A stretch of DNA of 25,514 bases from Chthoniobacteraceae bacterium (GTDB lineage: Bacteria; Verrucomicrobiota; Verrucomicrobiia; Chthoniobacterales; Chthoniobacteraceae): assembly GCA_031409655.1 (NCBI GenBank), contig JANNXQ010000177.1, positions 1 through 25,514 on the forward strand, written 5' to 3'. This document shows positions 5,867-22,247 of this stretch, one piece after another (the first letter of the stretch is position 1; each line of letters begins with the position of its first letter). Made by a program: the position numbers and the translations under genes. Under the pieces are notes generated by a model. That model made no database searches and was not told the DNA's origin. It saw only the letters and a program-made list of their open reading frames with translations.

Positions 5867-5878
5867 AGACCCATTGAA

Positions 5879-5974
<96 letters not shown>

Positions 5975-6002
5975 TTCCCCGGCCGCCTAGGCGCCCCCTC
6001 GC

Positions 6003-7889
6003 ATGGCCACCAAAAAACTCTCCCGCAAAGCCATCGCCAAAATGTCCTTCCGGGATTTTCTGCGCGAAGCCCGCGGGCCGTATGCGCGGCTCTTCAGCTA
6101 CCTGAAGCCGTATCGCACGCGCTTCTTCGCCGGCATCCTCTGCGGCGCGCTCTTCGGCATCGTGCAGGCGCTCCTTGTCTTTGATGTGCAATATGTCGCC
6201 AGTGCCGTCTTCCCGGATCGCGGCTCCCCGGCGGGCGGGCCGCTCGTGAAATGGTTCCCGCAGCTCGCTGATCTCCAGGTCGGCTCCAGCCTGTTCACGG
6301 TCCTGCTCATCTGCGCGAGCATCCCGGCGCTCATGGCCCTGCGCGGCCTCTGCGGTTATCTGAATTCCTACTGCATGCTCTGGGTCAGCGTGCGCGTGCT
6401 CGACGACATCCGCACCGAGGTCTTCCGCCACACCCTCGGGCAGTCGATGGAATTCTTTAACAAGTCCAAAGCTGGCGAGCTGGTGCAGACCGTCTTCAAC
6501 CAGACCCGCATGGCGCAACAGGCGCTCACGAATATCTCGGGCGACATCGTCAAGCAGCCCATCTCCATCCTCACCGGACTGGCCGCGCTCTTCATCATCG
6601 ATGCGCGTTTCATGCTCATGTCTTTCCTCATCTTCCCGCTCTGCATCGTGCCGGTGGTGCTGATCAGCCGGAAGGTGCGGCAGGCCGGCGTGCGTGAGGA
6701 GCAGGAAGCCGGACAGCTCATGGTCGTGATGCAGGAGGCCTTCGCCGGCATCCGCGTGGTGAAAACGCACGCACGCGAGGACTACGAGTCGGAGCGCTTC
6801 AATGCGGCCAATGACAAGATCATGCAATTCATCATGCGCTGGCGGAAGGCGCTGGAAATGGCGGGTCCGATGGTCGAGACCGTGGCGTCACTCGGCATCG
6901 CCCTCGCCCTCGCGTGGACGTGGTACTACCAGCTCGGCTTCGCCAAATTCATCGCGCTGAACGGCGGCATGGTGATGCTTTATCCGGCCTTCAAATCGCT
7001 GAGCCGCATCTATCTCACCATGCAGCGCTGCCTGGCCTCGACCACCGCGATCTTCGAGCTGCTCGACCGCGTGCCCGCGATCCAGGATGCGCCCGACGCG
7101 ACGAAGCTCCCGCGCGTCCGCGGCGAAGTGCGCTTCGACGGCGTCACCTTCGCCTACGGCATCGACACGCCCGCCGTGCATGGCCTCGAGCTCGCGATCC
7201 CCGCCGGCACGAGCTGCGCGCTGGTCGGCGCGAGCGGCGCGGGGAAGAGCACCGTGCTCGCCTTGCTCCAGCGTCTCTACGAACCGCAGCAAGGCAGCGT
7301 GCGCATCGACGGCCACGACATCCGCAGCGTCACCCAGGCTTCGCTGCGCGAAAACATCGCGACTGTCAGCCAGGACATCTTTCTCTTCCACGACACCATC
7401 GCGAATAACATCCGCTACGGTCGGCTCGACGCCACGCAGCCCGAGATCGAAGCCGCCGCGCGCCAGGCCCACGCGCACGATTTCATCATGGCGCAGCCCA
7501 AAGGCTACGAGACGGTGATCGGCGACAAAGGCAGCCTGCTCAGCGGCGGCCAGCAGCAGCGGCTCTCCATCGCCCGCGCCTTGCTGAAGAACGCCCCGAT
7601 CCTCCTGCTCGACGAAGCCACCAGCGCGCTCGACTCCGAGTCCGAGCAGCACATTCAAGCCGCGCTCGAAGCCCTCGCCGCCGGCCGCACCGTGGTCGCC
7701 ATCGCCCACCGGCTCTCCACCATCCTGCACGCCCATCAGATCGTGGTCATGGAAGGCGGGACGGTGAAAGAGATCGGCACGCACCAGGTGCTGATGGAAA
7801 AGAGCGGCTACTATCGCCGACTGTGCGACCTGCAGTTTGGGGGAAAATTTGAAACTCGAAATCCGAAACTCGAAACCAGTGAAGTATGA
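6003..7889 (+). CDS. msbA: ABC exporter, fused TMD-NBD, MsbA-like lipid A-core flippase
   Basis: Hydrophobic N-terminal half; Walker A GASGAGKST, signature LSGGQQQR, Walker B ILLLDEATSALD, IAHRLSTI. Adjacent to LPS core glycosyltransferases. Confidence 0.8.
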   Translation: MATKKLSRKAIAKMSFRDFLREARGPYARLFSYLKPYRTRFFAGILCGALFGIVQALLVFDVQYVASAVFPDRGSPAGGPLVKWFPQLADLQVGSSLFTVLLICASIPALMALRGLCGYLNSYCMLWVSVRVLDDIRTEVFRHTLGQSMEFFNKSKAGELVQTVFNQTRMAQQALTNISGDIVKQPISILTGLAALFIIDARFMLMSFLIFPLCIVPVVLISRKVRQAGVREEQEAGQLMVVMQEAFAGIRVVKTHAREDYESERFNAANDKIMQFIMRWRKALEMAGPMVETVASLGIALALAWTWYYQLGFAKFIALNGGMVMLYPAFKSLSRIYLTMQRCLASTTAIFELLDRVPAIQDAPDATKLPRVRGEVRFDGVTFAYGIDTPAVHGLELAIPAGTSCALVGASGAGKSTVLALLQRLYEPQQGSVRIDGHDIRSVTQASLRENIATVSQDIFLFHDTIANNIRYGRLDATQPEIEAAARQAHAHDFIMAQPKGYETVIGDKGSLLSGGQQQRLSIARALLKNAPILLLDEATSALDSESEQHIQAALEALAAGRTVVAIAHRLSTILHAHQIVVMEGGTVKEIGTHQVLMEKSGYYRRLCDLQFGGKFETRNPKLETSEV

Positions 7890-7991
7890 AGAGACGAAAC
7901 TTTGAAATGACTGACGTGCGCGCCTCGAACCGTTTTTTCCCTTCCAGCAGTTGGAATTTGGTGCGGATTGCGGATTGCGGATTTCGAGTTT
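7851..7991. repeat. Inverted heptamer arrays (GAAA[CT][TC]C)n / (GCGGATT)n overlapping coding ends
   Basis: 7851-7878 GAAACTC GAAATCC GAAACTC GAAACCA; 7963-7990 (GCGGATT)3 TCGAGTT. Bases 7852-7865 are the exact reverse complement of 7978-7991. Confidence 0.85.
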
Positions 7992-8389
7992 TCCTCCTCC
8001 TGTTTGCCTGCACCCTCCCGGCCTCGGCCGAGGACACCATCAAGAGCAAAGTCGTCGATGCCGAGAATCATTCCGTGACGGAAACCCTCGCGGACACCAA
8101 AGGCCGGATCATCAAAAAGACGCGCTTCTTTTTCGACGATAACAACTGGTCGAAGGGTGCAATTCACTTCGGGGAGAAAGACGTGGTGAAGTACAAAGAG
8201 GTCTTCAAACGCGACGCCAGTGGACGGCTGCTCGAGACCCGGCTTTTCGACAAGGACGACAAATCGCTCGGCAAACGCGTCTGCCAATACGACAGCGGCG
8301 GCAAGCTCCTGCGGATCGACGATTACGACGCCGCGGGCCAGCTCCTCACCCCGGCGCAGCGCGCGCTGCCGGTGAAAAGGAAACGGTAA
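7961..8389 (+). CDS. Exported hypothetical protein with YD/RHS-like beta-hairpin repeats
   Basis: Signal-peptide-like FLLLFACTLPASA|ED; repeats DTKGRII, RDASGRLLE, YDSGGKLL, YDAAGQLL. Start uncertain (GTG 7961 or ATG 7886). Confidence 0.7.
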   Translation: MRIADCGFRVFLLLFACTLPASAEDTIKSKVVDAENHSVTETLADTKGRIIKKTRFFFDDNNWSKGAIHFGEKDVVKYKEVFKRDASGRLLETRLFDKDDKSLGKRVCQYDSGGKLLRIDDYDAAGQLLTPAQRALPVKRKR

Positions 8390-8579
8390 TCCGCGAGCCC
8401 CCCGGGAGCGCCGCCGTCCCGTGCGGCATCGTGCCGATCCGCGCAGCGCCACTCCTGCACCGCGAGGGTGTCGCCGACGAGTCCGTAGGAGCGATGATCC
8501 TTCGCGAGTTGGCACAGCGACGCGAGACACGGAGTTCCGATTGACAGACCCGCGTGCCTCCATCGACACCTTCCCCGCC

Positions 8580-9338
8580 GTGCGCGTCTTTCTTCGCTCC
8601 CTCTCGATCTTCCTCCTGCTCGGTGCCTCCGCGGTGGCGCGGGAGTTCGATCTGCGACGCGACACCTTTGCCTTTTCCAATGACACCGCCCTCCAATACG
8701 GCGTCGATGAGCAGGGGCATCTGCATATTTCACGGCGCGAAAAGCCCGTCGAGTATTCGCACCGCTGCTTCGTCCTGGCCCGGGCCGTCCTGCAGTTCCA
8801 TCAGTTCGCGCGCTTTACTCCGAAAGAGCCCAAGCTCACTCGGGAGGAATACCGCGCGCGCATCAAACGCCTCTGCCGCATCGCCGTCTGGACCCGCGGC
8901 CCGCGCGAGCGGATCGTCTTTCCCGGCTTCGCGGATCTGCACGCTTTCTCGATCGCCTACGAAGGTCTGCTCAAGGAAAACCTCGGCAACTGGCTGCCCA
9001 CCTACCTGCGCATCGGCAACTGGCGCATGTGCATGGGCCACCTCCGCGCCGGCCAGGCCGCAGCCGCGCGCTGGCTCGAAAAATCGATCGCGGAAGGTCG
9101 CCCGCGCGCGCTCTACCTCGCGCGTTTTCCGCACATGAATCACGTCGTGGTGCCTTACTCGATGCAGCGCGAAGCCGGAGGCGATCTGCGCTTTCAGGTC
9201 TATGATCCAAACTACCCGAACCGCCCAAGCTGGCTGCTCTACCGGGCGAACGAGCGCAGCTTTGACTTTGAGAAGCGCTGGTACTTCCCCGGCGGTCGCG
9301 TGAATGTCATGCGCGTCTTCATCTCGCCGTTGCACTGA
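8580..9338 (+). CDS. Exported hypothetical protein, possible papain-like Cys-His-Asp fold
   Basis: GTG 8580 gives signal peptide MRVFLRSLSIFLLLGASAVA; motifs HRCFVL, NHVVVPY and VYDPNYP. TTGACA at 8541-8546 upstream. Confidence 0.7.
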   Translation: MRVFLRSLSIFLLLGASAVAREFDLRRDTFAFSNDTALQYGVDEQGHLHISRREKPVEYSHRCFVLARAVLQFHQFARFTPKEPKLTREEYRARIKRLCRIAVWTRGPRERIVFPGFADLHAFSIAYEGLLKENLGNWLPTYLRIGNWRMCMGHLRAGQAAAARWLEKSIAEGRPRALYLARFPHMNHVVVPYSMQREAGGDLRFQVYDPNYPNRPSWLLYRANERSFDFEKRWYFPGGRVNVMRVFISPLH

Positions 9339-9360: not shown

Positions 9361-9815
9361 AAGGACGCCCGGCTCCGTGCCGAATTTCAGGTCGGCGTCA
9401 ATGAGCCCCAGGACTTCGAGAGCGAAATCGACCGCGCCGCGATCATCCACGCCGCCTGCGGGACCCACGCCGACGCGCTCGCCGAGCACGGCTGGATCGC
9501 CGCCGATACCACCGACCTCGGCGCCGCCCTCGAGACGCTCGAAGGCGCGGGGAATACCCAGAACAACGCCAGGGCAAAAAGAAAGGCATCACCGCCCGCC
9601 GCAGCCGCGCCGCCAACGAACTCCACAAAAAGTGCCTGAGCCTGCAAAACGCCGCCCGCCTCGCCTACCCGAGCACGAAGATCGGCAAAGTGGGCGGCAT
9701 CGAAGAAGCCCGCGCCCGCTTCCTCCTCGACGAATTCCCACCCCGCACCGGCGCCAACGCCGGCGAAAACCCCGACCCAAACGGCCCACCGACGTCACCC
9801 GAGCCGGGAAAGTAG
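9361..9815 (+). pseudogene. 5'-truncated, frameshifted remnant of a hypothetical helical protein
   Basis: Coding-like frame KDARLRAEFQVG...TQNNARAK switches at the A-run near 9576-9584 to a second frame, KGITARRSRAANELHKKCLSLQNAARLAYPS...RARFLLDEFPP...PGK*, with stop at 9813-9815. No plausible start. Confidence 0.6.
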
Positions 9816-9920
9816 TTGCGGCATTGGGCATTCCGAAGGTTTGGCCAGAAAACTGACCACACGGGATGCCCTCCGCCTGGGATCTCTGACCGTTGAGCAG
9901 TCCATTCAGTTGCGGCTTGG

Positions 9921-10068
9921 CGGAGCAAAGCAGTCCACGACTTTAGTCGGCCAAGCCCTTCGCCAACAGAGGCAAACTTCGACCCGATAGAAGTCGCCGG
10001 TCGTGGAATTCGACGCTGCTACTGCGTTGCGCGTCGAGCCGACTAAAGTCGAAGAGTACTTTGCCGCC
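9921..10068. repeat. REPIN/MITE-like inverted repeat with CGACTTTAGTCG palindromic core
   Basis: CGACTTTAGTCGGC (9938-9951) is the exact reverse complement of GCCGACTAAAGTCG (10038-10051). Outer GCAAAG/CTTTGC also pair. A degenerate third copy lies near 10130-10156. Confidence 0.7.
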
Positions 10069-10249
10069 GCGCCGGTCGTACTGTTGGTGAGAGATGGGAT
10101 CACTCATGCCAAAGCGCATGAGCCTGTCGGAAAAGACTCATGCGACTTTGGTTGGCGAAAAGCCCTTGGCAACACCGAAACGCCTTGCTGTCACCCAGAG
10201 CGAATGCCCGGCCGCGTCGTTCTCGTCAACCTTCGCGGCGGCGTTGCCC

Positions 10250-11467
10250 CTATGGCTGGGTGGCGCGAGCCTGGAGGGTGACGAAGCCTTGGGGAAGGGT
10301 GGTCGTCACGCGCCATGTGGCGACATTGATGTTGCCGCTGATGCGAGTAGCAGGCAGTAACGAACGTGCAGAAAACTTTGGGATTAGGGCAAGCTCAACA
10401 ACGCCTTCGATGGGAAAGTCACGCGTCTCAATCACGATACTAACCGGCGCGTTGTTCTGAATGGCCACATCGGCGGCCGCGACGAGTGGAGATCTAGGAT
10501 CGGTGGGCGCAACTATGGAATCGACGCTAACAACGCGCGCCTTTGGCGCATTGGCAGCGGGCCAAATGATGGGCGGGTTTGCTGGTGGAACCCCTACAGT
10601 CTCCGGAGTTGAAACAAGACCGCTTGAGAGCCATCCTTCAATCCTGATCCGACCATCCGGAAACGCGCGGAGATTCGACAGGACTCCTTGAGACACTGAC
10701 GTCGTTCCTGTAACAGATTGAGCAATCAATCTTATCGCTCCGCCACTGCCATACTGTGGGTTAGCATAGGTTATTGAAGTACCACCACTTACATCAATCT
10801 GTCCAGTTACGTTGATAACATTGCCTGCAGCGATAAGGATTGCACCTCCTCCCCCCGCTCCCGCCACTTCAAAAGTTGGCTTGTGTCCAGACCCTCCAAT
10901 AAGCGGAAGAATCTGCGGGTTTCCATAAACTGATGCATAGCGGCCACTATTGTATCCGCCATTTCCCAAGGCGAAGCCCGGGCCATACCCGTCTCCAGAT
11001 CCTTGTGGACCCACCGCCCCACCCCGAAACCCACCTGGGCCTGCTTCAGCGGGAACAAGCCTCGATACAGCATCTCCACCTTCGTTTTGACCCAAAAGCA
11101 GTAATTTTCCAGCAATGTTAACATTTCCTTGCACGAGCCATACAACAGGGGCTTTGCTCGGATGATTCTTGAACCGGACGGTTCTGCCCACAAGCTGGGC
11201 GGGCGATCCGCTCGTGAAGCCCGCGATATTGACAGAAGTGTATTTGAAAACGATCGCCCACTTATCCGGGTCATAGACGCCCTTACCGGCATTGGCGGAA
11301 TTGTTTTGATTCCATGTGCCGGTGACGGCTTGGGAGAGGTCGATCACCGTGTCTGCGGTGATATTCAATGCACCATCGGAGCCGTCGCTGGGGATGGTGA
11401 GTTGGGCGGAGGCGGTCAGGGTACTGCCAATGAAGGCAGCGGCGAGGATTAGTTTGTGGAGTGTCAT
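10250..11467 (-). CDS. Exported Gly-rich hypothetical protein (405 aa)
   Basis: ATG 11467 gives signal peptide MTLHKLILAAAFIGSTLTASA|Q; SDGSDGAL, GPGGFRGG, GAGGGGAILIAA and GSGGAIRLIA motifs; beta-rich C-terminal domain. Confidence 0.8.
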   Translation of the reverse strand: MTLHKLILAAAFIGSTLTASAQLTIPSDGSDGALNITADTVIDLSQAVTGTWNQNNSANAGKGVYDPDKWAIVFKYTSVNIAGFTSGSPAQLVGRTVRFKNHPSKAPVVWLVQGNVNIAGKLLLLGQNEGGDAVSRLVPAEAGPGGFRGGAVGPQGSGDGYGPGFALGNGGYNSGRYASVYGNPQILPLIGGSGHKPTFEVAGAGGGGAILIAAGNVINVTGQIDVSGGTSITYANPQYGSGGAIRLIAQSVTGTTSVSQGVLSNLRAFPDGRIRIEGWLSSGLVSTPETVGVPPANPPIIWPAANAPKARVVSVDSIVAPTDPRSPLVAAADVAIQNNAPVSIVIETRDFPIEGVVELALIPKFSARSLLPATRISGNINVATWRVTTTLPQGFVTLQARATQP

Positions 11468-11521
11468 GGGTTTGGTGGGTTGGTTCGGAGGTTGTTGGGA
11501 CTTGGTTCTGATAGGTAGCAC

Positions 11522-12418
11522 TTAGGGTTCGTTAAAATTCAGGACGCTGACTTCACGCGAGTTGACTTCGAGAGCGGCAGTGGGGCTGCCGAGATTGAAG
11601 ACGCTCACTTCCCGCGTCTCGATTTGCAGGAGATCGCTGGAAGGAACCGCCTGGCCGTTGAAGACCGAACATTCACGGGAATGGGTGTAACCGATAAGGG
11701 TCGCACCGCCAGGATCGCCCCCACCTGAGTTGCTGCCACCGGGAGCACTGCCAAAGTTGAAGATGCTGAATTCGCGGGTCTCGATCTGAAGGAGGTCGCT
11801 GTAGGGGACGGCTTGGCCATTGTAGAGGGAAACTTCCTTGGAGCTCGCTTCAAACGTCGCGCTGGGGCTGCCGAAGTTGAAGATGGATTGCTCCCGAGTG
11901 TTGGCCTCGAAGGTGGCGGAAGGGCTGCCGAAATTGAAGATGCTGACTTCCCGGCCTTCGCGTTGGAGGATCTTGTAACTGGTGATCCGAAATAGGTTCA
12001 AATAGACTTGGTAATTGGTGAGTCCGCCGCCGCCTGGGGAAAGTTTGGACCCATCACTCGGATCGAGCGGATCGAGAATGTTCGGGTGGGACAGCTCGTA
12101 AGCGTCGTCTATTCCATCGCCATCGGTATCCAGAGGGGCAAATTTACTATACGGGATGGCGCGGAAGAATCCCTTGGGCACCCCTGGGACGATTTGGAGC
12201 TCAGAAGGAGTGCCGAGGCTCATATCGGCTGATTCCCAAGTGATAAGATCGTGGGAAAACTGCAGCAGGTAGTAGGCGCCGGGATCCTCGGCAAACTCGA
12301 CGACCGCCATTCCATTGATGAGCTGGAAGTTCTGGATGGTATTCAGCGGGACGGCCGAGGCGCCGGTGAGAATCGTGATCCACAGAGTGAGAAATAGGAT
12401 GGAAGATCGCGTCGTCAT
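11522..12418 (-). CDS. Exported protein with DxDGDG Ca-binding-like motif and seven RExSxxN repeats (298 aa)
   Basis: ATG 12418 gives signal peptide MTTRSSILFLTLWITILTGASA|V; YLLQFSHDLITW...FFRA module; DTDGDGIDDAYE..LDPLDPSD; C-terminal repeats. The track's extension to 12832 runs through a promoter motif and a REPIN. Confidence 0.8.
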   Translation of the reverse strand: MTTRSSILFLTLWITILTGASAVPLNTIQNFQLINGMAVVEFAEDPGAYYLLQFSHDLITWESADMSLGTPSELQIVPGVPKGFFRAIPYSKFAPLDTDGDGIDDAYELSHPNILDPLDPSDGSKLSPGGGGLTNYQVYLNLFRITSYKILQREGREVSIFNFGSPSATFEANTREQSIFNFGSPSATFEASSKEVSLYNGQAVPYSDLLQIETREFSIFNFGSAPGGSNSGGGDPGGATLIGYTHSRECSVFNGQAVPSSDLLQIETREVSVFNLGSPTAALEVNSREVSVLNFNEP

Positions 12419-12510
12419 TTGAGGATGTTTTGAAAGGCAATGAGTTTGGTCATTTTTGGTTCGGAAGCGGGAGCGACCTTGACGGTGGCGCGCAGGGTCC
12501 TCCCTCCTTG

Positions 12511-12537
12511 ATTCGGAATCGCGACCGCCGGGTTTCA
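12511..12537 (-). promoter_or_regulatory. Candidate ECF promoter, copy A
   Basis: Minus strand TGAAACC-cggcggtcgcg-ATTCCGAAT, 92 nt upstream of ATG 12418; same motif and spacing as copies B and C. Confidence 0.8.
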
Positions 12538-12615
12538 AAGAATCCGAAAAACCTTTGGCAGGGATTGAGAAATTCGGCGCGACTCCGGTTCGCCCGCCGC
12601 GGGATCGGAGCGCTT

Positions 12616-12745
12616 TGGAGTGCGCAGACTCGTCTGCGTTTTGGCGGCGGCGGCGACTGGTCGCCGGCGGCAGGGCGCAGAGGCTTTCCCCCCGCCGCCG
12701 ACAAGTCGGCCCCTCCGCAAAGCGCGGACAAGTCCGCGCACTCCA
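12616..12745. repeat. REPIN-like element with TGGAGTGCGC...GCGCACTCCA ends
   Basis: Inverted termini enclosing four palindromes with GAC-NN-GTC cores: GCGCAGACTCGTCTGCGT, CGGCGACTGGTCGCCG, GCCGACAAGTCGGC, GCGCGGACAAGTCCGCGC. Confidence 0.8.
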
Positions 12746-12863
12746 GAGCTGTCGCGTGCAACAACCCTTACTCGTTGTCCGTGCAGGCCACTTCGCACAC
12801 GCTACTGGCACTTTATCCACATCACGCGGCACTGAGGACGGGACGGTTTCGTTCTGTAACGCT

Positions 12864-15800
12864 TCAAAACTCTACGCCCCAAACCCAGAGGCTGCCGTCG
12901 CCGCGAATCCCTGCGGCTCCGTTCTCTCCTGCGGAAATGCTCACCCAGCGACCATCCGCACCGATCCGCACAGGGGACAGTCGATCGATGGTACTGCCAT
13001 CGCCCAGTTGCCCGCGGTGATTGTGACCCCAAGCCCAGAGGCTGCCATCGGCCTGCAAGGCAAATGTTGAGTCAACAGTCGCAGCTACGAGTGTCCAGCG
13101 GCGATTCCCGCCAACCGCCGTCCAATCGGATCGCGCGGCCTTCGATCCGATGCCGAGTTTTCCGAATTCGTTCCCGCCGGAGCCCCAAAGCGTTTGATCT
13201 TTTCCGATGACGAAGGACCGAGTCTGGCGCGTTTCCACCGCGATCCAGTATCCGTCCGGCCCGATCCGAACGGGATTAGGAACCTTTTCAGCAGTGGTCA
13301 GGCCCAGTTGGCCGGCTCGGTTGTCACCCCATCCCCAGAGGCTGCCGTCGGCTTTGATGGCACCACCAGAACCATAGGCAGCGCTGATGCAGGTCCAATC
13401 GTGGTCCGTTCCGATTTGCTTGGGATACAATTGCGGCGCCGAGGGTCCAGTGGACCGTTGCCCGAACTGATTTGCACCCCAGCCCCAAAGGGTGCCATCC
13501 GCTTTCAGCGCCAAAGTATGAAAGGCGGCGAGTGCGAGCCCAGTCCAGTCGGTGCCCGTCCCAACCCTGGTCGGTGCGGGTCGGTTCACCTCTGTGCCGT
13601 CTCCGAGGCACCCGTATCGATTTCTGCCCCAAGCCCAAAGGCTGCCATCTGTTTTGATCGCAAACGATGCGTCGGCGCGCGCTGCGGCCGTTTTCCAGTC
13701 GATGTCCGAACCGATGCGCACCGGCTCGCGTTTGTCCTCGAGAACGCCCACTCCCAATTGCCCAAACGATCCCTTTCCCCATGCCCACAGGCTGCCGTTG
13801 GCTTTGATCGCGAGAGCGTGGCTCTCGCCCACGGCGACGGAAATCCAGTCATTGTCCCTGCCGATCTGACGCGGAATCTGGCCAGTCGGAGCCCGCGGTG
13901 CGGTCTTTTCGGAGTTGCCAGCGGAAACAGCCACCACCTTTGCACTGACTCGATTCTGCGCAAGATAGTCGCCGCCTTGGTCCAGTACGCAGCGGAAACC
14001 GTAGTCTGCAATGCGTGCTGTCGCCGGATACGTTTGCCGCCGGGATGCGACTAGGAGCAATAGGTGCGGGGAAAACCAACTTCCGCCACGCACGATGCGC
14101 TTCGCTCCATCGGTATCGGCTCGATCTTCACAATACTCTCCGGCGTTGCCTGCCAGATCGAAAATTCCGAGGATATTTCCGCGAAAACTTCCAACCGGAG
14201 CAGTGCCGGAATACTCATCCCGGTAGCCAATAATCCGTTCCTTCATCACGGCTCCGAATTTGGCATAGGTTGCTTCGTCCCCGAAGTTGCCCGCTCCGCT
14301 CGGCGGCGGCCAGGCTGCACCCCATGGATAGTCTGGGATCACTCCATTTTTGTTCGAGGGCATCGCCGTTTCGTCCTCGCGATTCCCGATCCCCACGGCG
14401 CAACTCCACTGGTGGTCGGTAGGGAGACGGTAAGTCGCGCCGGCGGGAAGCACGCCTTGGGAAAGTTCGGTTTTTGTCAGCCAATCGCAGAATGTTTTTG
14501 CTTCGGTCCAACTCACCCGGATGACCGGATGGTCGGGACCCTGTGGGACGGGCATTCCCTTTGAGGTCGGCTGGGTCCATTCAGCATCCACGTCATTCGC
14601 TTTCGCAAACTCGGCGTAGTCACGCACGCGGGTTTCCCAAATGGAGAAGAGTATGTTGGTTCCCGGTACCGGCACGAATTTCATCCCCAATGAGTTCACA
14701 AAGGGCTGCTCTTTGCTCGCGCCAGGAAGTTTCTCGGCCAAGGCTGCGGCTTCGGACTTCGACAGCGGCCTTGGCGGGGCGTCGGAGGTCGCCGCTGCGC
14801 GCGCTGGTGCGACCTCAGCAGCCCGCGTGGCTTTGCGAAGCTCGCCACCTTTCCAAATAAAAATACTGGCGATCACGGTGATCGCGAGCGCGCCCGCCGC
14901 TGCGAGTGACCACGTTTTTCTCGGCGATGAGGTCGGCTTTTGCGGTGAAGTCTGCGGCGGCGTGGTGCGGATGTGATCCACATCCGTCTTCATCTCGCCG
15001 GCTTGCTGGTAGCGGCGGGCGGGTTCCTCTTGCAGGGCTTTGAGCACGACCTCGTCGAGGCGGATGTCCACCTGCACTTTGCGCGAGGGCGGGTCGAAGA
15101 CGCCGTGCGGGCGCTGGCCAGTGAGCATTTCGTAGAGCATCACGCCGAGGGCGTAGATGTCGGCGCGGGCGTCGGCGTGGCCAGTGCGCTGCTCGGGGGC
15201 CATGTAGGCGTCGGTGCCCATGATGGCGTTTGCGCTGGTGAGGACGGACGTATCTTCCGCGAGCGGGCGGGAGAGGCCGAAGTCGGCGACCTTGGCCCGG
15301 CCATCCGCGGTGACGAGGATATTGGCGGGCTTAATGTCGCGGTGGATGACGCCCTGGCGATGCGCGTAATGGAGGGCGTCGCAGACTTGGGAGATGAGGG
15401 TGAGGGCTTGCTCGGGATTCAGGCCGGGACCGCGCAGGATGCGCTGGAGATCTGTGCCCTCCACAAACTCCATGACGAAATAGGGATGACCCGCGCTGGT
15501 CTGCCCGAATTCATAAACGGTGACGATGCCGGGATGCTGGAGTTTCGCCAGAGTGCGGGCTTCGCGCTGGAAGCGGGCGATGAATTGCTCATCGGCCGCC
15601 AGCTCGGCGGAGAGGAGCTTGATGGCGACGGGACGATCGAGCGCGGATTGGACGCCGCGATACACGGCACCCATGCCACCGCAGCCGAGCAGCGCGGTGA
15701 TGCCGTGCTGCGGGAGCAGTGCGGCGAGTTCCTCGGGCGTCGGCGGCACCCATGACTGTGCGCCATGGGACGGCCGAACCGTGCGCAGGCCCATCGCCAG

Positions 15801-15884
15801 CAACTCACCCGGGTCGAGATCGGCAAGGCCACCGAGCAACGGATTGCGCGGTGCAGCGGGCGGCGATGGTTCCTCGGGATTCAC
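12864..15884 (-). CDS. Membrane Hanks-type Ser/Thr kinase with extracytoplasmic FGE-sulfatase (SUMF1-like) domain and 7-repeat RCC1/BLIP-II propeller
   Basis: LGCGGMGAVY, VAIK, HRDIKPANIL, DFGL, GTDAYMAPEQ; TM WSLAAAGALAITVIASIFIW; NSLGMKFVPVPG, HPVIRVSW, RLPT, RGGSW..YGFRC; seven GSLWAWG-type repeats. Confidence 0.92.
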   Translation of the reverse strand: MNPEEPSPPAAPRNPLLGGLADLDPGELLAMGLRTVRPSHGAQSWVPPTPEELAALLPQHGITALLGCGGMGAVYRGVQSALDRPVAIKLLSAELAADEQFIARFQREARTLAKLQHPGIVTVYEFGQTSAGHPYFVMEFVEGTDLQRILRGPGLNPEQALTLISQVCDALHYAHRQGVIHRDIKPANILVTADGRAKVADFGLSRPLAEDTSVLTSANAIMGTDAYMAPEQRTGHADARADIYALGVMLYEMLTGQRPHGVFDPPSRKVQVDIRLDEVVLKALQEEPARRYQQAGEMKTDVDHIRTTPPQTSPQKPTSSPRKTWSLAAAGALAITVIASIFIWKGGELRKATRAAEVAPARAAATSDAPPRPLSKSEAAALAEKLPGASKEQPFVNSLGMKFVPVPGTNILFSIWETRVRDYAEFAKANDVDAEWTQPTSKGMPVPQGPDHPVIRVSWTEAKTFCDWLTKTELSQGVLPAGATYRLPTDHQWSCAVGIGNREDETAMPSNKNGVIPDYPWGAAWPPPSGAGNFGDEATYAKFGAVMKERIIGYRDEYSGTAPVGSFRGNILGIFDLAGNAGEYCEDRADTDGAKRIVRGGSWFSPHLLLLVASRRQTYPATARIADYGFRCVLDQGGDYLAQNRVSAKVVAVSAGNSEKTAPRAPTGQIPRQIGRDNDWISVAVGESHALAIKANGSLWAWGKGSFGQLGVGVLEDKREPVRIGSDIDWKTAAARADASFAIKTDGSLWAWGRNRYGCLGDGTEVNRPAPTRVGTGTDWTGLALAAFHTLALKADGTLWGWGANQFGQRSTGPSAPQLYPKQIGTDHDWTCISAAYGSGGAIKADGSLWGWGDNRAGQLGLTTAEKVPNPVRIGPDGYWIAVETRQTRSFVIGKDQTLWGSGGNEFGKLGIGSKAARSDWTAVGGNRRWTLVAATVDSTFALQADGSLWAWGHNHRGQLGDGSTIDRLSPVRIGADGRWVSISAGENGAAGIRGDGSLWVWGVEF

Positions 15885-15916
15885 GGGGCGTGACGGTAGG
15901 GGATTCTATGCTGCTG

Positions 15917-15943
15917 ATTCGGAATAAGGGAACTTCGGGTTCA
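15917..15943 (-). promoter_or_regulatory. Candidate ECF promoter, copy B
   Basis: Minus strand TGAACCC-gaagttccctt-ATTCCGAAT, 32 nt upstream of kinase GTG 15884. Confidence 0.8.
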
Positions 15944-15957
15944 AAGATTCTGCGGCT

Positions 15958-16082
15958 GATCGGGCGCTCCGAGCACGATGCGTGGAACCGCCGCCGGAGG
16001 CGTATCCTTTTCGACCGCTCCTCTGGAGAGCATGGCGCTTTGCGCATGGGTTTTGCCATCGAGCTCGGAGCGCTCGATCCAC
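15958..16082. repeat. REPIN-like inverted repeat, GTGGAT/GCTCCG family
   Basis: GATCGGGCGCTCCGAGCACGATG (15958-15980) matches the reverse complement of 16057-16079 at 21 of 23 positions; each arm is itself a hairpin; related to 25391-25503. Confidence 0.7.
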
Positions 16083-16209
16083 GACGCCGCGAGCTCCCCA
16101 GCCGGCTTTTGCCGGCCGGGAAGCCGCCTCGCTGGTCCACGCCACCGCCACACCCGGCGCAATCTTCCGCCAAATCAAAAAGTCAGGCGCGGCCGGGCTG
16201 CGATGGTTT

Positions 16210-16938
16210 TCACACACAGGTCAGCAGCTCGGAGAGTTCGCCCTTGATTTCCTTTTCACTCGGGGAATCGAGGGTGGTGGCGACCTGTGCGAAGAGCAGC
16301 TCGCGCCAGCGCTGGCGGAGGCGGAAGACCTGCGTCTTGAGCGTGCCGACGGGCGTACCGGTGGCCGCGGCGATGTCTTCGTAGCGCTGCTCCGGGTCGA
16401 GACCAAAGCCAAGAAACGGGCGCAGGGTCTCGAATTGCGCGCCCTTGCCAGCGGCGACGAACTCTTCGCGGAGAAGCTGGAAGGACTGCTCCAGGATGGC
16501 GAGCGCCCAGCGCCGCTGGAAGAGACGGTCGGGAGTAACGTCGTCCACGAGTTCGACGGCGTAGGCTTCTTCGGCCCACTCGGGATTGAAACTCACGAGC
16601 ACGCTGGCACCGCGCTTCTGCGCCATGGCTCGATCGTGCTCGTCGGCGAGGTAACGGCGGACACAGGTAAGCAGGAAGATACGCAATCGGCCCTTTTCGC
16701 GATCGGCGGCGGCGAGAATGTCCTTTTCCAGCAGGCGGGCGAAGAAGCCCTGGGTCAGGTCCTCGGCGTCGTGCGAGCTTTTCCCCGAACGCCGGATGAA
16801 GGCGTACACCGGATACCAGTAGGCTTCGCAGAGCGTCGCGAGCGCCTTCCCGGCAGCGGGGTCACTAGCACTCAATGCCTGGCGGACAAGCGACCAGCGC
16901 GTGGTGTGGAAGGAGTGAGGGGCGGATGGTACGTTCAT
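16210..16938 (-). CDS. ECF RNA polymerase sigma factor, kinase-associated PVC type
   Basis: N-terminal FHTTRWSLV; region 2 LCEAYWYPVYAFIRR..DAEDLTQGFF; region 4 YEDIAAATGTPVGTLKTQVFRLRQR; C-terminal extension. Upstream of a Ser/Thr kinase, no anti-sigma gene. Confidence 0.92.
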   Translation of the reverse strand: MNVPSAPHSFHTTRWSLVRQALSASDPAAGKALATLCEAYWYPVYAFIRRSGKSSHDAEDLTQGFFARLLEKDILAAADREKGRLRIFLLTCVRRYLADEHDRAMAQKRGASVLVSFNPEWAEEAYAVELVDDVTPDRLFQRRWALAILEQSFQLLREEFVAAGKGAQFETLRPFLGFGLDPEQRYEDIAAATGTPVGTLKTQVFRLRQRWRELLFAQVATTLDSPSEKEIKGELSELLTCV

Positions 16939-16953
16939 GGACTCTACTTATGA

Positions 16954-16980
16954 ATTCGGAATCCAGCAGCCAAGGTTGCA
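16954..16980 (-). promoter_or_regulatory. Candidate ECF promoter, copy C (autoregulatory)
   Basis: Minus strand TGCAACC-ttggctgctgg-ATTCCGAAT, 15 nt upstream of the sigma ATG 16938. Confidence 0.8.
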
Positions 16981-17062
16981 GGAAATTTATCGCCGGCTGC
17001 AATGCTCGGTCCGGCCCTTTCGGCTTCCGCGCGGCGCGAAATCCCCGGATGGTGCGCACCGC

Positions 17063-18364
17063 ATGTCTCCCGCGCTTTCCCTCGCCGCCGCCGGTCCCGC
17101 GCCGCATCCGCTCATGGTGCTGCCCTTCGTCGTGCTGCTGCTCGCCATCGCCATCGCGCCACTCGCCTGCCGGCATCAGTGGGAGCGTTGCTATCACCTC
17201 ATCGCGCTGGGGCTCGGGGCGATCAGCGTTTTTTACTACGTCGTCGTCCTGCATTTTCCCGCGCCGATGATCCATGTGGCAGAGGAATATCTCAGCTTCA
17301 TCGCGCTGATCGGTTCGCTCTACATTGTCGCCGGTGGCATTCACATTCGAGTCAAAGGCGAGGCGACGCCGGCGGTGAATGTGCTCTTCCTACTGATCGG
17401 CGCGGTGATCGCGAATGTCATCGGCACCACCGGTGCGTCGATGCTGCTCATCCGTCCGTGGATTCGGATGAACAAATACCGCGTCACCGCGTTTCACATC
17501 GTTTTCTTCATCTTCATCGTGAGCAATGTGGGCGGCTGCCTCACACCGATCGGCGATCCGCCACTCTTCCTCGGCTTCCTGAAAGGCGTGCCATTCTGGT
17601 GGGTGCTCGAACATTGCTGGCAGGCCTGGTGCGTAGGCGTCGCCGGGTTGCTGGCGATCTTCTATGTGATCGATCGGCGGAATTTTTCCCGCGCTCCGCG
17701 CGCGGTGAGTGAAAAGCAGACGGCGCGCGAAGAGTGGCGCTTCGATGGCTGGCACAACGTCGCCTTCCTCGTCCTCATCCTCTTCGGCGTCTTTCAGCCG
17801 TTTGGCCTTCGCGAAGTCATCATGCTCGGCGCGGCGATCGGCTCCTACTTTACGACCTTCCCCGAAGTGCATCGGTCGAATGACTTCAACTTCCACCCGA
17901 TCAAGGAGGTCGCCTGGCTCTTCATCGGCATCTTCGCGACGATGGTGCCGGCACTCCAGTATCTCGAGGCCAACGCGAAGGCGCTGCCGCTGGCCACGGA
18001 GATGCACTTCTACTGGCTCACCGGCGCGCTCAGCGGTGTGCTCGACAATGCGCCCACTTACCTCGCCTTCCTCGCCGCCGCCTTCGGCCGCTACGGCCTC
18101 AGCCTCGATTCGCCGGCAGACATGCACACCTTCATCGCCGAGCACGATCATCACCTCGTCGCCATCTCGATCGGCGCGGTCTTCTTCGGCGCGATGACTT
18201 ACATCGGCAACGGCCCGAACTTCATGGTCAAAGCGATCGCCGAACATCAGAAGGTCGAGACGCCCGGCTTCCTCGGTTACATCCTCCGCTACTCGATCCC
18301 AGTGCTGCTGCCGTTCTTCTTCCTCGTGGGAATTCTCTTCTTCTCCCGGTGGCGAATTTTCTAA
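17063..18364 (+). CDS. IT-superfamily secondary transporter (putative Na+/H+ antiporter / CitMHS_2-like)
   Basis: Polytopic membrane protein with IGTTGASMLLIRP, LTPIGDPPLFLGFL, LDNAPTYL and MTYIGNGPNFMVKAIAE. ATG 17063 preferred over 16937, which overlaps the divergent promoter. Confidence 0.85.
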   Translation: MSPALSLAAAGPAPHPLMVLPFVVLLLAIAIAPLACRHQWERCYHLIALGLGAISVFYYVVVLHFPAPMIHVAEEYLSFIALIGSLYIVAGGIHIRVKGEATPAVNVLFLLIGAVIANVIGTTGASMLLIRPWIRMNKYRVTAFHIVFFIFIVSNVGGCLTPIGDPPLFLGFLKGVPFWWVLEHCWQAWCVGVAGLLAIFYVIDRRNFSRAPRAVSEKQTAREEWRFDGWHNVAFLVLILFGVFQPFGLREVIMLGAAIGSYFTTFPEVHRSNDFNFHPIKEVAWLFIGIFATMVPALQYLEANAKALPLATEMHFYWLTGALSGVLDNAPTYLAFLAAAFGRYGLSLDSPADMHTFIAEHDHHLVAISIGAVFFGAMTYIGNGPNFMVKAIAEHQKVETPGFLGYILRYSIPVLLPFFFLVGILFFSRWRIF

Positions 18365-18375
18365 GTTCGCCGCCA

Positions 18376-18966
18376 ATGTTCACCGGTCTCGTCGAAGAAT
18401 GCGGGGAAGTCGCCGCGCTTGCGCTTTCCGAAAGCGGTGCGCGGCTCAGCGTGCGGGCGCCGCTCGTCAGCAGCGACGTGAAGATCGGCGACAGCATCGC
18501 GGTGAATGGCTGCTGCCTCACCGTGACCGCGCGGGATGGCGAGACGCTTTCGTTTGATCTACTGCGCGAAACTTTGGAGCGCACGAGCTTGCGGTCCGCG
18601 GTGCCGGGCTCGGTGGTGAATCTCGAACGCGCGCTGGCCGCCCACGCGCGGCTCGGCGGGCATTTTGTACAAGGTCACGTGGATGGTGCGGCCGAGGTGC
18701 TGGCCTTCGCGCAGGTGGGCGCGGACTATCGGCTCGAAGTCGCGCTGGCGAGCGAGTCCGCGAGATATGTGGCCTTCAAAGGTTCGATCGCGATCGACGG
18801 CATCAGTCTCACGGTCGCGGAGGTGCGGGAGGCGAGTTTCGTGGTCTGGATCATCCCGCACACGCTGGCGGTGACGAACCTGAGAGCGCGCCGGAAAGGA
18901 GACAGCGTGAATCTCGAATTCGATCTGCTGGCGAAGTACGTCGAGCGCATCCTGGCCGCGAAGTAG
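18376..18966 (+). CDS. ribE: Riboflavin synthase alpha chain
   Basis: Diagnostic N-terminus MFTGLVEE; GDSIAVNGCCLTV, VNLERAL, GGHFVQGHVD, KGSIAIDGISLTV, IIPHT. Confidence 0.97.
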   Translation: MFTGLVEECGEVAALALSESGARLSVRAPLVSSDVKIGDSIAVNGCCLTVTARDGETLSFDLLRETLERTSLRSAVPGSVVNLERALAAHARLGGHFVQGHVDGAAEVLAFAQVGADYRLEVALASESARYVAFKGSIAIDGISLTVAEVREASFVVWIIPHTLAVTNLRARRKGDSVNLEFDLLAKYVERILAAK

Positions 18967-18979
18967 CGCGGGGGCGAAC

Positions 18980-19186
18980 TCCGGGGAGCGTCCGCGTCTC
19001 GCGGGTGGGTCGCGGCGTCCCGCCGCGACGAACTTTCGGATTCCCACGATCCCGACAAGAACTCCGCGCACGCAGAACATGCCGGTCCATCTTCATCCTG
19101 CGGAGCTCTCGCCAGTCCGATCAGCGTTGAAAGTCCGTTTCGGCGGGACGCCGAAACCAACACGCGGGACGCGGATGGTACCCGGA
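18980..19186. repeat. REPIN-like element between convergent genes
   Basis: Left arm TCCGGGGAGCGTCCGCGTCTCGCG..GTCGCGGCGTCCCGCCGCGACGAACTTT mirrored by right arm AAAGTCCGTTTCGGCGGGACGCCGAAAC..CGCGGGACGCGGATGGTACCCGGA; two internal palindromes per arm. Confidence 0.8.
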
Positions 19187-19208
19187 AACTCCTCCCCGCA
19201 CGCCCTCG

Positions 19209-19436
19209 TCAGGCCGCGAGCGCAAGAGGCTCACGGAGGATCGCATCCCGCCGCGCGCGGGCCTCGGCCAGAGACTTCGTCCTGAGCGAGCGCCGGACGC
19301 GCTCTTTCGTCAAGGGCGTGGGATGCACGACGTAGTGGATGAACCACGTGCCGTTATTGTTCCAGAGATGATGATTGGGGTTGCCGGGATTCACCCGGAG
19401 CGAGAGCTGATACATGATGAGCGGTAGGTGCCGCAT
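19209..19436 (-). CDS. Small basic protein (68-75 aa), putative AP2/integrase-arm-like nucleic-acid-binding fold
   Basis: NPNHHLWNNNGTWFIHYVVHP..KERVRRSLRTKSLAEARARRD suggests three strands plus a helix. Start is ATG 19436 or 19415; the track's 19508 start lies inside the riboswitch. Confidence 0.75.
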   Translation of the reverse strand: MRHLPLIMYQLSLRVNPGNPNHHLWNNNGTWFIHYVVHPTPLTKERVRRSLRTKSLAEARARRDAILREPLALAA

Positions 19437-19440
19437 CGTG

Positions 19441-19572
19441 GGAGAATCGGTTTCGCGACCGGCAGACGAATCCGGCGCGCACATCGCCCGCGAGCCAGTC
19501 GCGGGCATCCACCTTGGTTTTCTCCGACCAGGTTGGCGGACTCAGCCGCAGGGCTGGGTCTCTCTTGATGCA
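19441..19572 (-). ncRNA. SAM-I/IV variant riboswitch (SAM clan)
   Basis: Minus strand: P1 GCAUC/GAUGU; J1/2 AAGAG; P2 GACCCAGCC/GGCUGAGUC; P3 CCAACC-UGGU/ACCA-AGGUGG with L3 CGGAGAAA; P4 GCCCGCGA/UCGCGGGC; P5 GCGCCGG/CCGGUCGC; PK-2 between L3 GGAGAA and 3' UUCUCC. Confidence 0.85.
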
Positions 19573-19739
19573 AATTGTTAGTATTCCAAAAAGAACCTCC
19601 GACACCGTAGCGCCCACCGGAGCCCGCGCAACCCGGAATTTTTCCCAGTCCGATCTGGCCCGCGATCGGCTGGAAACCCCCAAGAAACATCCTTCCGACG
19701 GGTAGTGGTATCGACGGATCTCGCAGCTCTAGCCGACCC

Positions 19740-22163
19740 ATGCATACTTCATTCATCACCCGCTTCCTTTTCGCCGCCGGACTTTGCACCGCGACCTCCG
19801 GCGTCTTCGCGGCGCTGCAGTCGGACTTCGAAGTTTTCCCGGCGGACGTAAATCTGAAGTTTAAGCGCGATCAGCAAACCGTCGTCGTGCGCGTCGCGGA
19901 ACCGTCGGGCGTGCATCGGGATGTCACGGCGGAGGCGAAATTCACGCTGCTCGACCCGGCGAAGGCAAAGGTCGAAAAAGGCGTGGTCTATCCGCTCGCG
20001 GATGGGGAGACGAAGCTGAAAGTCGAGTGGCAGGGCAAGTCGATGGAGGTGCCGGTGAAGATCGCGCAGGCGACCGTGGAGGAGGCGATCAGCTTCCGGC
20101 TCGATGTCATGCCCGTCTTCATGAAGGCGGAGTGCAATCGCTGCCACGGGGCCGCGCGCGGCCAGGACGGCTTCATGCTCTCGCTCTGGGGCTTCGATCC
20201 GGAAAAGGATCACTATCGCCTGACCCGCGAGCAGCCCGGGCGCCGGATCAATCTCGCGATGCCGGAAGCCTCGATGATCGTGACGAAAGCGAATGGCGAC
20301 GCGCCGCACACGGGCGGTAAGAAATTCGACAAGAGCAGCGAGCTCAACAAGACGCTCATTCGCTGGCTCGAAGCGGGCGCGCCGAATGACCCGCCGACCG
20401 TCGCCACCTGCACGAGCCTCGAGATTTTGCCGAAGCAGCTCCTCCTCGAGAGCCCCGGGCAGAAGTTTAAGATCACCGTGCGCGCCCACTACAGCGATGG
20501 CAGCGATCGGGACGTCACCGGTCAGTCCCTTTTCCTGACGAGCAACGAAGCCAGCGCCAAGATCGGCGACGACGGCGTCGTCTCCACCGGACAGCGCGGC
20601 GAAGCCTTCGTCATGGCGCGCTTCGCGACGCACACCGTGGGGACGCAGGTCATCGTCGTCCCGAAGGCGCTGAAGTTTGAGTGGCCGACGATCGAAGAGC
20701 GCAACTACATCGACACCCTGGTGAATAACAAGATCCGCAACCTGCGGATGACGCCGAGCGAGCTCTGCGACGACGAGACTTTCCTGCGCCGCGCCTTCAT
20801 CGACATCGTGGGCCTCCTGCCGAATGCCGAGGAGGTCAAATTTTTCGTCGCTTCCCAGGATCCGAATAAGCGCGCGGACATCGTGGACAAACTGCTCAAG
20901 CGCGATGAGTTCGTGGACCTCTGGGCGCTAAAGTGGAGCGAACTCCTCCAGATCCGCACGGTGCAGAACCAGGGCAGCTACAAAGCCATCCTCAACTACC
21001 ACTCGTGGGTCCACGACCGGCTGAAAAAGAACGTCCCCGTGAACGAAATCGCGCGGGAGCTGATCGCCGCGAGTGGCTCGAACTTCAGCAAGCCGACCGT
21101 CAACTACTACCAGCTCGAGACGGACCCGCTGAAGCTCGCGGAAGACACCGCGCAATCCTTCCTCGGCATCCGCATCCAGTGCGCGCAGTGCCACAATCAT
21201 CCCTTCGACCGCTGGACCATGGACGACTACCGGGGCTTCGTCGCTTTCTTCACCCAGATCGGGCGGAAGAATGGCGAGGATCCGCGCGAGAAGATCATCT
21301 ACAACAGCGGCGGCGGAGAATCCAAACACCCGGTCGGCGACCGCGTGGTTCCGCCAAAATTTCTCGGCGGCGAAGCCCCCGACACGAAGAGCAAAGACCG
21401 CCGCCAAGTGCTCGGCGACTGGATCGCTTCGCCGGACAATCCGTATTTCCCCCGCCACATCGCGAATCTCGTCTGGGCCCAATACATGGGGCGCGGAATC
21501 GTCGAGCCCGTGGATGACGTCCGCATCTCGAATCCCGCTTCGAATCCCGAACTCCTCGAAGCCCTCGGGGCGAAACTCGTGGAATACAAATACGACCTGC
21601 GGCGGATCGTCCGCGATATCTGCACCTCGCGCAGCTACCAGCTCACCACCCGGCCAAACGCGACCAACGAACTCGACGAGCGCAACTTTGCCAAGGCCAC
21701 CATCCGCCGGATGCGCGCGGAGGTGATGCTGGATTGCATCAATCAAGTCACCGAAACCAAGGACCGCTTCAAGGGACTGCCCCTCGGCGCGCGCGCCGTG
21801 GAAGTGGCTGATGGCAAGACGACGAATTACTTCCTGACGACCTTTGGCCGCCGCGACCGGGAGGTCATCTGCGCCCGGGAGGAAGTCGGCCCGACGCTCA
21901 GTCAGGCGCTCCACCTGATCAACGGCGAGACCGTGGACAACAAGATCCTCGAAGGCGGCGTCGTGAAGCGCCTGCTCGCCGCCAACATGGGCCCGCGCGA
22001 CGTGGCCACCGATCTGTACCTCCGCTGCTTTGGCCGCCTGCCGAGCGACGACGAGCTGAACAAGCTGGAGAAACACTGGGGCGTGACCGAGGAACAACCG
22101 AAGGTCTTCAACGACGTCTTCTGGGGCCTCCTGAACGCCAAGGAGTTCATGTTCAACCATTGA
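19740..22163 (+). CDS. DUF1549/DUF1553 (PSCyt2/PSD1) protein with Ig-like domains
   Basis: Signal peptide; SFRLDVMPVF..CNRCHG..GQDGFMLSLWGFDP; DDETFLRRAFIDIVG; FLGIRIQCAQCHNHPFDRWT; NPYF..NLVW..GRGIVEPVDD; QALHLING; EFMFNH C-terminus. Confidence 0.9.
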   Translation: MHTSFITRFLFAAGLCTATSGVFAALQSDFEVFPADVNLKFKRDQQTVVVRVAEPSGVHRDVTAEAKFTLLDPAKAKVEKGVVYPLADGETKLKVEWQGKSMEVPVKIAQATVEEAISFRLDVMPVFMKAECNRCHGAARGQDGFMLSLWGFDPEKDHYRLTREQPGRRINLAMPEASMIVTKANGDAPHTGGKKFDKSSELNKTLIRWLEAGAPNDPPTVATCTSLEILPKQLLLESPGQKFKITVRAHYSDGSDRDVTGQSLFLTSNEASAKIGDDGVVSTGQRGEAFVMARFATHTVGTQVIVVPKALKFEWPTIEERNYIDTLVNNKIRNLRMTPSELCDDETFLRRAFIDIVGLLPNAEEVKFFVASQDPNKRADIVDKLLKRDEFVDLWALKWSELLQIRTVQNQGSYKAILNYHSWVHDRLKKNVPVNEIARELIAASGSNFSKPTVNYYQLETDPLKLAEDTAQSFLGIRIQCAQCHNHPFDRWTMDDYRGFVAFFTQIGRKNGEDPREKIIYNSGGGESKHPVGDRVVPPKFLGGEAPDTKSKDRRQVLGDWIASPDNPYFPRHIANLVWAQYMGRGIVEPVDDVRISNPASNPELLEALGAKLVEYKYDLRRIVRDICTSRSYQLTTRPNATNELDERNFAKATIRRMRAEVMLDCINQVTETKDRFKGLPLGARAVEVADGKTTNYFLTTFGRRDREVICAREEVGPTLSQALHLINGETVDNKILEGGVVKRLLAANMGPRDVATDLYLRCFGRLPSDDELNKLEKHWGVTEEQPKVFNDVFWGLLNAKEFMFNH

Positions 22164-22235: not shown

Positions 22236-22247
22236 CCGTTTGCCACT

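Follow-up and report, generated by a model that had tools for sequence, protein, structure and literature searches.

Predicted ECF promoters at a sigma factor-kinase locus of a Chthoniobacteraceae bacterium

The 25,514-nucleotide stretch of a Chthoniobacteraceae bacterium analysed here (hereafter the window; contig JANNXQ010000177.1 of assembly GCA_031409655.1) carries on its minus strand a gene for an extracytoplasmic function (ECF)-like sigma factor, followed by a gene for a Hanks-type Ser/Thr kinase and a pair of genes for exported proteins, with one copy of a bipartite motif ahead of each of these three units. It is a well-supported prediction, built on comparison with related loci, that the motif is an ECF-type -35/-10 promoter, and the sigma factor encoded beside it very probably reads it.

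Genes and motif copies at the locus

The sigma factor (242 aa; 16210-16938, minus strand) matches the sigma2 family PF04542 (E 4.7e-6; 26.7 bits against a cut-off of 24), as do 62 of 75 family members, and is spanned from residue 32 to residue 213 by TIGR02937 at a score below its cut-off (35.7 bits, cut-off 42.9). No Pfam match to a sigma3 or a sigma4 domain was obtained for the protein itself; among its relatives 16/75 match PF08281 at E ≤ 0.001, and the family profile matches solved SigE chains (E 3.6e-6) in an alignment that runs through the sigma4 helix-turn-helix. The DAED motif of region 2.2 (residues 57-60; 16759-16770, minus strand) is intact, with D60 present in 75/75 sequences. The closest relatives belong to Chthoniobacteraceae, Chthoniobacter and Prosthecobacter, within a large and apparently unclassified family that extends over Verrucomicrobia, Planctomycetota and Acidobacteriota.

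At position +1 relative to the sigma gene lies the kinase gene (1006 aa; 12864-15884, minus strand; PF00069, E 1.7e-48), whose product has intact catalytic motifs (GxGGMG, VAIK, HRDIKPAN, DFG and APE at 67, 86, 181, 201 and 229) and one membrane helix, placed by eye at about 325-344, ahead of an ectodomain made of an FGE-sulfatase-like domain (429-633) and an RCC1 propeller (669 to the end). A kinase is encoded downstream of sigma at 67/114 family loci, and its ectodomain varies among relatives. There is no anti-sigma gene at the locus, in agreement with the suggestion of a first-pass annotation of this DNA that a Hanks kinase serves as partner instead. Between the kinase stop codon and the next motif copy stands an inverted element resembling repetitive extragenic palindromes (12600-12745; GGAGTGCG ... 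CGCACTCC), the 11-mer arm of which occurs in 22 copies in the genome and which may end kinase transcripts.

The two exported proteins have signal peptides recognised by eye and no Pfam hit. Protein A (298 aa; 11522-12418, minus strand) combines an FnIII-like domain (25-96), a calcium-type DxDxDG loop and C-terminal SREVSxFN repeats; its model has a pLDDT of 62 and leaves the repeats unresolved, with the best structural match (Z 7.7) falling on the FnIII-like domain, and 229 homologues were collected. Protein B (405 aa; 10250-11467, minus strand), modelled at pLDDT 92, consists of a glycine-rich beta-helix (29-296) and an Ig-like domain (304-405); 1794 of 8000 scored sequences are homologues, and 0 of the 118 homologues checked has a Pfam match. 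The beta-helix is like that of two-partner-secretion domains (Z 7-9), namely the Proteus mirabilis hemolysin A fragment 4w8q (Z 9.1, rmsd 3.0, 139 aligned), FHA, HxuA and HMW1, but it aligns over only ~140 of 270 residues at 11-14% identity, in a protein of only 405 aa that ends with an Ig-like domain and has no transporter gene adjoining its own, and the fold shows no function. Foldseek returned no match for protein B at E ≤ 0.001, and in the ESM Atlas protein A had only TSP3-like leads below 0.9 and protein B only unnamed clusters. Judging from the models, the chances that the pair has a role at the cell surface are about even.

A 12-codon frame at 12415-12453 (minus strand), whose stop codon overlaps the start codon of protein A, makes translational coupling to the latter possible. 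The A/B pair also recurs as a two-gene operon in Verrucomicrobia, again with no Pfam family (G000:C277:1523-3738; L081; L187-L189; L240), and the operons at C277 and L081 have another upstream element in common, TTGCC-N16-CCGTA.

All three motif copies lie on the minus strand: P1, the predicted promoter of the sigma gene, at 16954-16980 (TGCAACC-N11-ATTCCGAAT); P2, that of the kinase gene, at 15917-15943 (TGAACCC-N11-ATTCCGAAT); and P3, that of the exported pair, at 12511-12537 (TGAAACC-N11-ATTCCGAAT). The coordinates, strand and spacing given by the first-pass annotation hold throughout, as does its remark that the window contains no further copy of the 9-mer, and the bipartite motif, matched three times in the window, was matched in none of 100 dinucleotide shuffles. 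The intergenic placement holds as well, given two start codons: that of the divergent transporter gene at its second Met (17063), preferred because the Pfam match begins only at residue 59 of the mechanically called open reading frame, and that of protein A at 12418, preferred because its homologues are mostly 280-300 aa long.

By itself the exact 9-mer is not special: beyond the three copies in the window, the 6.85-Mb assembly holds 39 others (42 in total), scattered over the genome and in many cases within genes. The bipartite form is special, for when all 16 defined positions are scored, exactly three perfect sites occur in the 6.85-Mb genome, all of them at the locus. Of three further sites, each with one mismatch, the one on C124 lies antisense within a gene, that on C94 within a gene and that on C127 over a probable start codon. 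The spacers of P1, P2 and P3 are mutually unrelated, yet 16/16 motif positions are kept.

Evidence for ECF-type promoters

When 10 sites from relatives were combined into a matrix, with the window left out, the genome gave 68 ranked hits, among which P3, P1 and P2 took ranks 1, 2 and 4; rank 3 went to a site on contig C194 that precedes the kinase gene paired with a paralogous sigma factor (65% identical). When the window consensus (at most 4 mismatches of 16) was scanned at 28 distinct sigma loci with identities of 52% or more, a set that leaves out the window and includes the C194 paralogue, a site was found ahead of gene +1, usually the kinase, at 22/28 loci (0 on the reverse strand; mean 1.6 and maximum 3 in shuffles) and ahead of the sigma gene at 7/28 (0 on the reverse strand; shuffles, mean 0.33 and maximum 1). 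The motif is thus conserved upstream of orthologous loci, 26 of the 28 having a site at one or the other position and three at both. Among distant family members the counts stay near background (5/72 for gene +1 and 3/73 for sigma). In a tree of 28 rows, with the window in and one truncated locus out, obtained by a quick rather than a careful search, the close sigma factors group as a single clade (SH-aLRT 100).

The expected promoter anatomy comprises a -35 element TG(C/A)AAC, a gap of 16 nt, a -10 element CG(A/T)A and a T-rich stretch upstream. The consensus sequences of SigM, SigW and SigX likewise have a 16-nt spacer. AAC/CGT is described as the hallmark geometry of ECF promoters (PMC8103513), and a pyrimidine-purine signature is reported at the start sites of 67.3% of them (PMC7776599). 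In 28 sites re-collected for an intact -35 element, with the step itself no part of the selection, a pyrimidine-purine step occurs at positions 8-9 after the 9-mer in 22/28 and at positions 8-9 or 9-10 in 26/28, a distance of ten bases from the final A of CG(A/T)A. Transcription would therefore begin 9-10 nt past the 9-mer, further than the 5-8 nt after CGAAT initially expected. For P1 the predicted +1 is A16945, with a T(-1)/A(+1) step as in 22/28 related sites, and the transcript would have a 7-nt leader with no Shine-Dalgarno sequence; for P2 it is A15907, and for P3 the start is predicted near 12502.

The three window copies of the 9-mer all read ATTC-C-GAAT, and the first-pass annotation had accordingly offered an operator role as an alternative; a dimeric regulator would then bind the palindrome, and the heptamer upstream would have no part in it. 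The symmetry is found in 0/29 related sites, although the strand, the heptamer and an 11-12-nt spacing persist in them; the remaining 9-mers are dispersed over the genome as described above, and the locus contains no regulator gene. With 0/29 related sites palindromic the operator reading was ruled out, its chance of being right being very slight indeed. The ranks under the relatives' matrix, the counts of 22/28 and 7/28 loci and the start-site step in 26/28 sites all bear out the original proposal of an ECF-type -35/-10 promoter.

Reach of the circuit and exchange of its outputs

A site ahead of the sigma gene is present in all eight members of the window's subclade (two of them at five mismatches) and at three other loci, and is absent from most of the wider clade. 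On this distribution, the conserved link is predicted to be feedback of the sigma factor on the kinase gene, with autoregulation of sigma mostly confined to the subclade. Positive feedback on both genes, as first put forward, is consequently favoured for the kinase (22/28), and for both genes together it finds sites in only 3/28 relatives.

The genome contains 18 matches to the sigma family, which raises the alternative that the sites are real but shared promoters, read also by paralogous sigma factors within a cross-talking network. The C194 paralogue is the foremost candidate, since the site ahead of its kinase has an identical -35 element and three changes in the 9-mer, and TG(T/A)AAC...CG elements were noted by eye ahead of the kinases of several distant paralogues. 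The -10 element of the C194 site (CCTAG), however, is unlike CGAAT, and distant family loci match the motif at background only, the motif tracking one clade; promoter sharing is therefore rather improbable. Inspection by eye revealed no association between residues of the sigma factors and variants of the -10 element. In the C194 kinase gene itself (G000:C194:58421-60310, minus strand), a TGA interrupts the frame near codon 66, just past the N-terminal helix; either the gene is a pseudogene or the assembly is in error here.

Outside the locus, no credible target was found in this assembly except the kinase gene of the paralogous C194 pair, and a genome-wide regulon was ruled out for this assembly. 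Dispersed motif matches in other genomes are mostly coding artefacts, one of them recurring in one enzyme gene, or repeats. The genes flanking the locus are ordinary: an HD protein, an ankyrin-YkuD protein, two glycosyltransferases and an MsbA-like ABC transporter on one side (123-9335), and a CitMHS_2 transporter, a lumazine-binding protein, DUF1549/1553 proteins and cytochrome-WD40 proteins on the other (17063-25301).

Both genes of the exported pair encode signal peptides and stand behind P3 as predicted outputs, and P3 has the top score in the genome; a search of 9500-17500 for sigma-70-type promoters found none. An opposing account, in which P3 merely remains from a local duplication or a repeat element and the exported genes, not being transcribed from it, would not be outputs, can point to the resemblance of P3 to the kinase promoters of relatives, to the absence of a pyrimidine at its predicted -1, to the exported pair occurring without the motif at 12 other loci, and to a motif copy inside a 100-bp tandem repeat in genome G753. 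It is nevertheless quite unlikely, given the unrelated spacers with 16/16 motif positions kept, the rank of P3 and the presence of exported genes behind the motif in three other genomes. In G285, four motif matches, the only four in its 3.7-Mb genome, all lie within 13 kb of sigma and precede three unrelated, exported-looking genes; in G751 the motif stands ahead of a passenger-repeat protein, and in G768 ahead of a DUF5122 propeller.

Two further genomes carry motif copies in other settings. The tandem repeat of G753 (L215:1190-2130; G753:C1) is intergenic, about 100 bp long and found as clusters on several contigs, and it holds an exact copy of the promoter motif; matches number 28 across G753, compared with 3 in G751. 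At L222 (G762:C235) a good copy of the motif, followed by the downstream signature, precedes an exported-looking gene, in a genome that has no close sigma factor at E ≤ 1e-75.

The distribution of the exported pair suggests that it is swappable cargo rather than part of the core. Neither gene was found in a set of 80 loci or in one of 19 sigma loci, many of which are cut by contig ends, and the motif is present at none of the pair's 12 other loci, of which L082 lies 5 kb from a distantly related sigma-kinase pair. Full-length protein A occurs in two other of 301 genomes of the order and in one of 401 genomes sampled from the phylum. Protein B occurs in 6/150 other genomes of the family, four of which have a close sigma factor on another contig, a weak hint of association. 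A fixed four-gene system was ruled out by the absence of the exported genes from the other sigma loci examined, and the description of the locus as a complete, self-contained circuit was overstated, the pair being missing at other loci of the clade and the 18 family matches allowing cross-talk.

How the pair came to lie behind a motif copy is suggested by P3 itself, which is identical to the kinase promoters of two relatives at 36 and 34 of 52 positions, compared with only 31 and 32 for P2. This greater closeness is a modest hint that the pair was probably captured by duplication of a kinase promoter. The G+C content at third codon positions is 0.79 for sigma and 0.81 for the kinase domain, and lower, 0.53-0.68, for the ectodomain and the outputs.

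Switching of the sigma factor and relation to known systems

In the mechanism that we propose, the FGE-like and RCC1 domains of the kinase would sense a signal outside the inner membrane; the kinase would then activate the sigma factor, most likely by phosphorylation outside the DAED motif; and active sigma would raise transcription of the kinase gene (a link throughout the clade), of its own gene (in this subclade) and of any exported genes placed behind a promoter copy, here a two-gene operon of possible surface or adhesin-like function. Control of sigma by the kinase is probable.

The nearest precedents are the ECF43 pairs EcfP-PknT of Vibrio parahaemolyticus and EcfK-PknS of Xanthomonas citri, which share with the present locus an ECF sigma factor with no anti-sigma, a single-pass kinase at +1, a variable extracytoplasmic sensor and a small output regulon (PMC8999054, PMC13147305, PMC7826278). 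In contrast to the present sigma factor, which comes from Chthoniobacteraceae-like Verrucomicrobia and keeps the DAED motif, ECF43 members are described from Proteobacteria only and have Ser/Thr in place of DAED in region 2.2; their predicted promoter is GTC/CAG, as opposed to TG(C/A)AAC/CG(A/T)A. The ECF43 switch relies on the kinase to supply again the negative charge lost with the missing DAED (PMC8999054), and in EcfK a linker site is reported to be used too (PMC13147305). Since DAED is intact in the present sigma factor, that switch cannot apply as such. The locus would work like EcfP/PknT and resembles group ECF62 in its context, and it fails the ECF43 definition.

Other residues could receive the phosphate. 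The N-terminal segment F10-H-T-T-R-W-S16 (16891-16911, minus strand) is a candidate phospho-switch, in which T13 is invariant (75/75) and position 16 of the family alignment is S or T in 75/75; by eye, it replaces the D-x-E-L N-terminal helix of the genome's ordinary ECF sigma factors, six of 12 of which have an acidic residue at the position matching S16. T13 may, on the other hand, simply cap a helix. T62, S116 and T135 are further conserved candidates. Direct phosphorylation at T12, T13 or S16, or at a linker site, is on this basis a possible but tentative mode of control.

The kinase offers a second element of interest, an N-terminal helix (L23-L33, LDPGELLAMGL; 15786-15818, minus strand) that is kept in 23/25 close loci and is a candidate for docking or tethering sigma. 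In distant loci a four-cysteine zinc finger ends in the same helix (32/42, compared with 0/25 close loci), so that the window's helix appears to be a cysteine-free form of that zinc-finger-plus-helix unit. The kinase might then act mainly as a membrane tether, its helix binding sigma in the manner of an anti-sigma domain until kinase activation releases it. Retention of the helix despite loss of the cysteines speaks for such a role, as do the presence of the zinc finger or helix in 9/14 kinases encoded near a family sigma factor in this genome (2/10 among other kinases), the product of a post-sigma gene of G285 in which the helix is joined to a membrane segment with no kinase domain, and the intact DAED, which implies a polymerase-competent sigma factor and hence a need for restraint. 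The helix is only ~11 residues long, however, and could instead pack on the kinase N-lobe or dock a substrate, and G285 has a separate kinase gene; tethering as the main function is the less likely course, though it is compatible with the mechanism proposed above and would change its switching step only.

The G285 gene in question (L178:3284-4771) encodes Sel1 repeats after the membrane segment and is directly followed by a separate, different kinase gene. In the window's own genome, family sigma factors are fused in frame to a kinase at G000:C99:20099-23725 and on C265, with open reading frames 1209 and 1256 aa long; the C99 fusion is devoid of DAED and retains a version of the N-terminal helix where its two parts join.

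It would also be conceivable, if rather doubtful, that these elements act together in an undescribed switch: the kinase would double as anti-sigma, holding the DAED-intact sigma factor via its N-terminal zinc finger/helix; phosphorylation of the invariant N-terminal motif T-x-W-S/T of sigma, which would stand where ordinary ECF sigma factors have acidic residues, would free and activate it; and copying of promoters of ~50 bp to positions ahead of exported genes acquired anew would rewire the outputs.

Taken as a whole, the explanation that the motif is a promoter read by the adjacent sigma factor, that the kinase activates this factor and that the outputs are local and exported is likely to be right. 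Several observations weigh against it. The P2 heptamer TGAACCC departs from the AAC core held by 28/29 related sites, which reflects a substitution or else a spacer with one extra base; two of the 22 sites counted ahead of gene +1 (L152 and L008) resemble chance best hits, with a better five-mismatch site nearby; the P3 start lacks the pyrimidine at -1; and in G285 a control pattern was also matched twice. Among the 18 sigma-family matches, the 65%-identical paralogue has a similar kinase-promoter site; the assembly is in 306 contigs, so that targets may be missing; and the relatives compared are kin rather than independent samples. The intact DAED, finally, rules out the proven ECF43 switch, and the target of the kinase could be something other than sigma.

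Among the groups described so far, ECF62 is characterised by a kinase gene at +1 whose product has a single membrane helix, an N-terminal zinc finger (subgroups s1-s3) and WD40 repeats (s1 and s2), according to PMC7826278. The window kinase shares the +1 position and the single helix, and distant family members, some of them from Planctomycetota, share the zinc finger (32/42) and WD40-type propellers (5/13 relatives); the window kinase differs in lacking zinc ligands (0/25 in the clade) and in having FGE-like and RCC1 domains instead of WD40. In the group descriptions compared here, ECF59, ECF61, ECF62 and ECF217 are listed as 100% Planctomycetes, and according to PMC7826278 neither ECF61 nor ECF62 has a conserved promoter. 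The same source indicates that classification demanded Pfam matches to sigma2 as well as to sigma4; with only 16/75 members matching sigma4, much of the present family may have been left out. As to the promoter itself, Bacillus subtilis SigW has a similar -35 box, ATTGAAACCTTT, and the AAC/CGT geometry (PMC8103513), whereas systems of the SigW type have a membrane anti-sigma and dispersed regulons in place of a kinase partner and local targets. Neither this promoter nor this clade is described in the literature covered; the planctomycete ECF papers PMC3497475 and PMC7286433 and the supplementary tables of PMC7826278 lay outside that scope and may contain an earlier group assignment or motif.

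The layout is in itself unsurprising, for sigma-kinase pairs are already known, as is ECF autoregulation, reported for about half of ECF sigma factors (PMC7776599). Kinase-linked ECF groups with an acidic region 2.2, on the other hand, may differ from ECF43 and need characterising, as stated in PMC8999054. For these the locus offers a testable set, made of a sigma factor, a kinase, three predicted promoters with their starts, candidate phosphosites and a candidate docking helix, from an environmental bacterium that is harmless, and its value rests on the testability of sigma switching, not on surprise. It thereby provides a concrete predicted promoter for a branch of kinase-linked, DAED-intact sigma factors, in which outputs would be exchanged behind a fixed sigma-kinase core.

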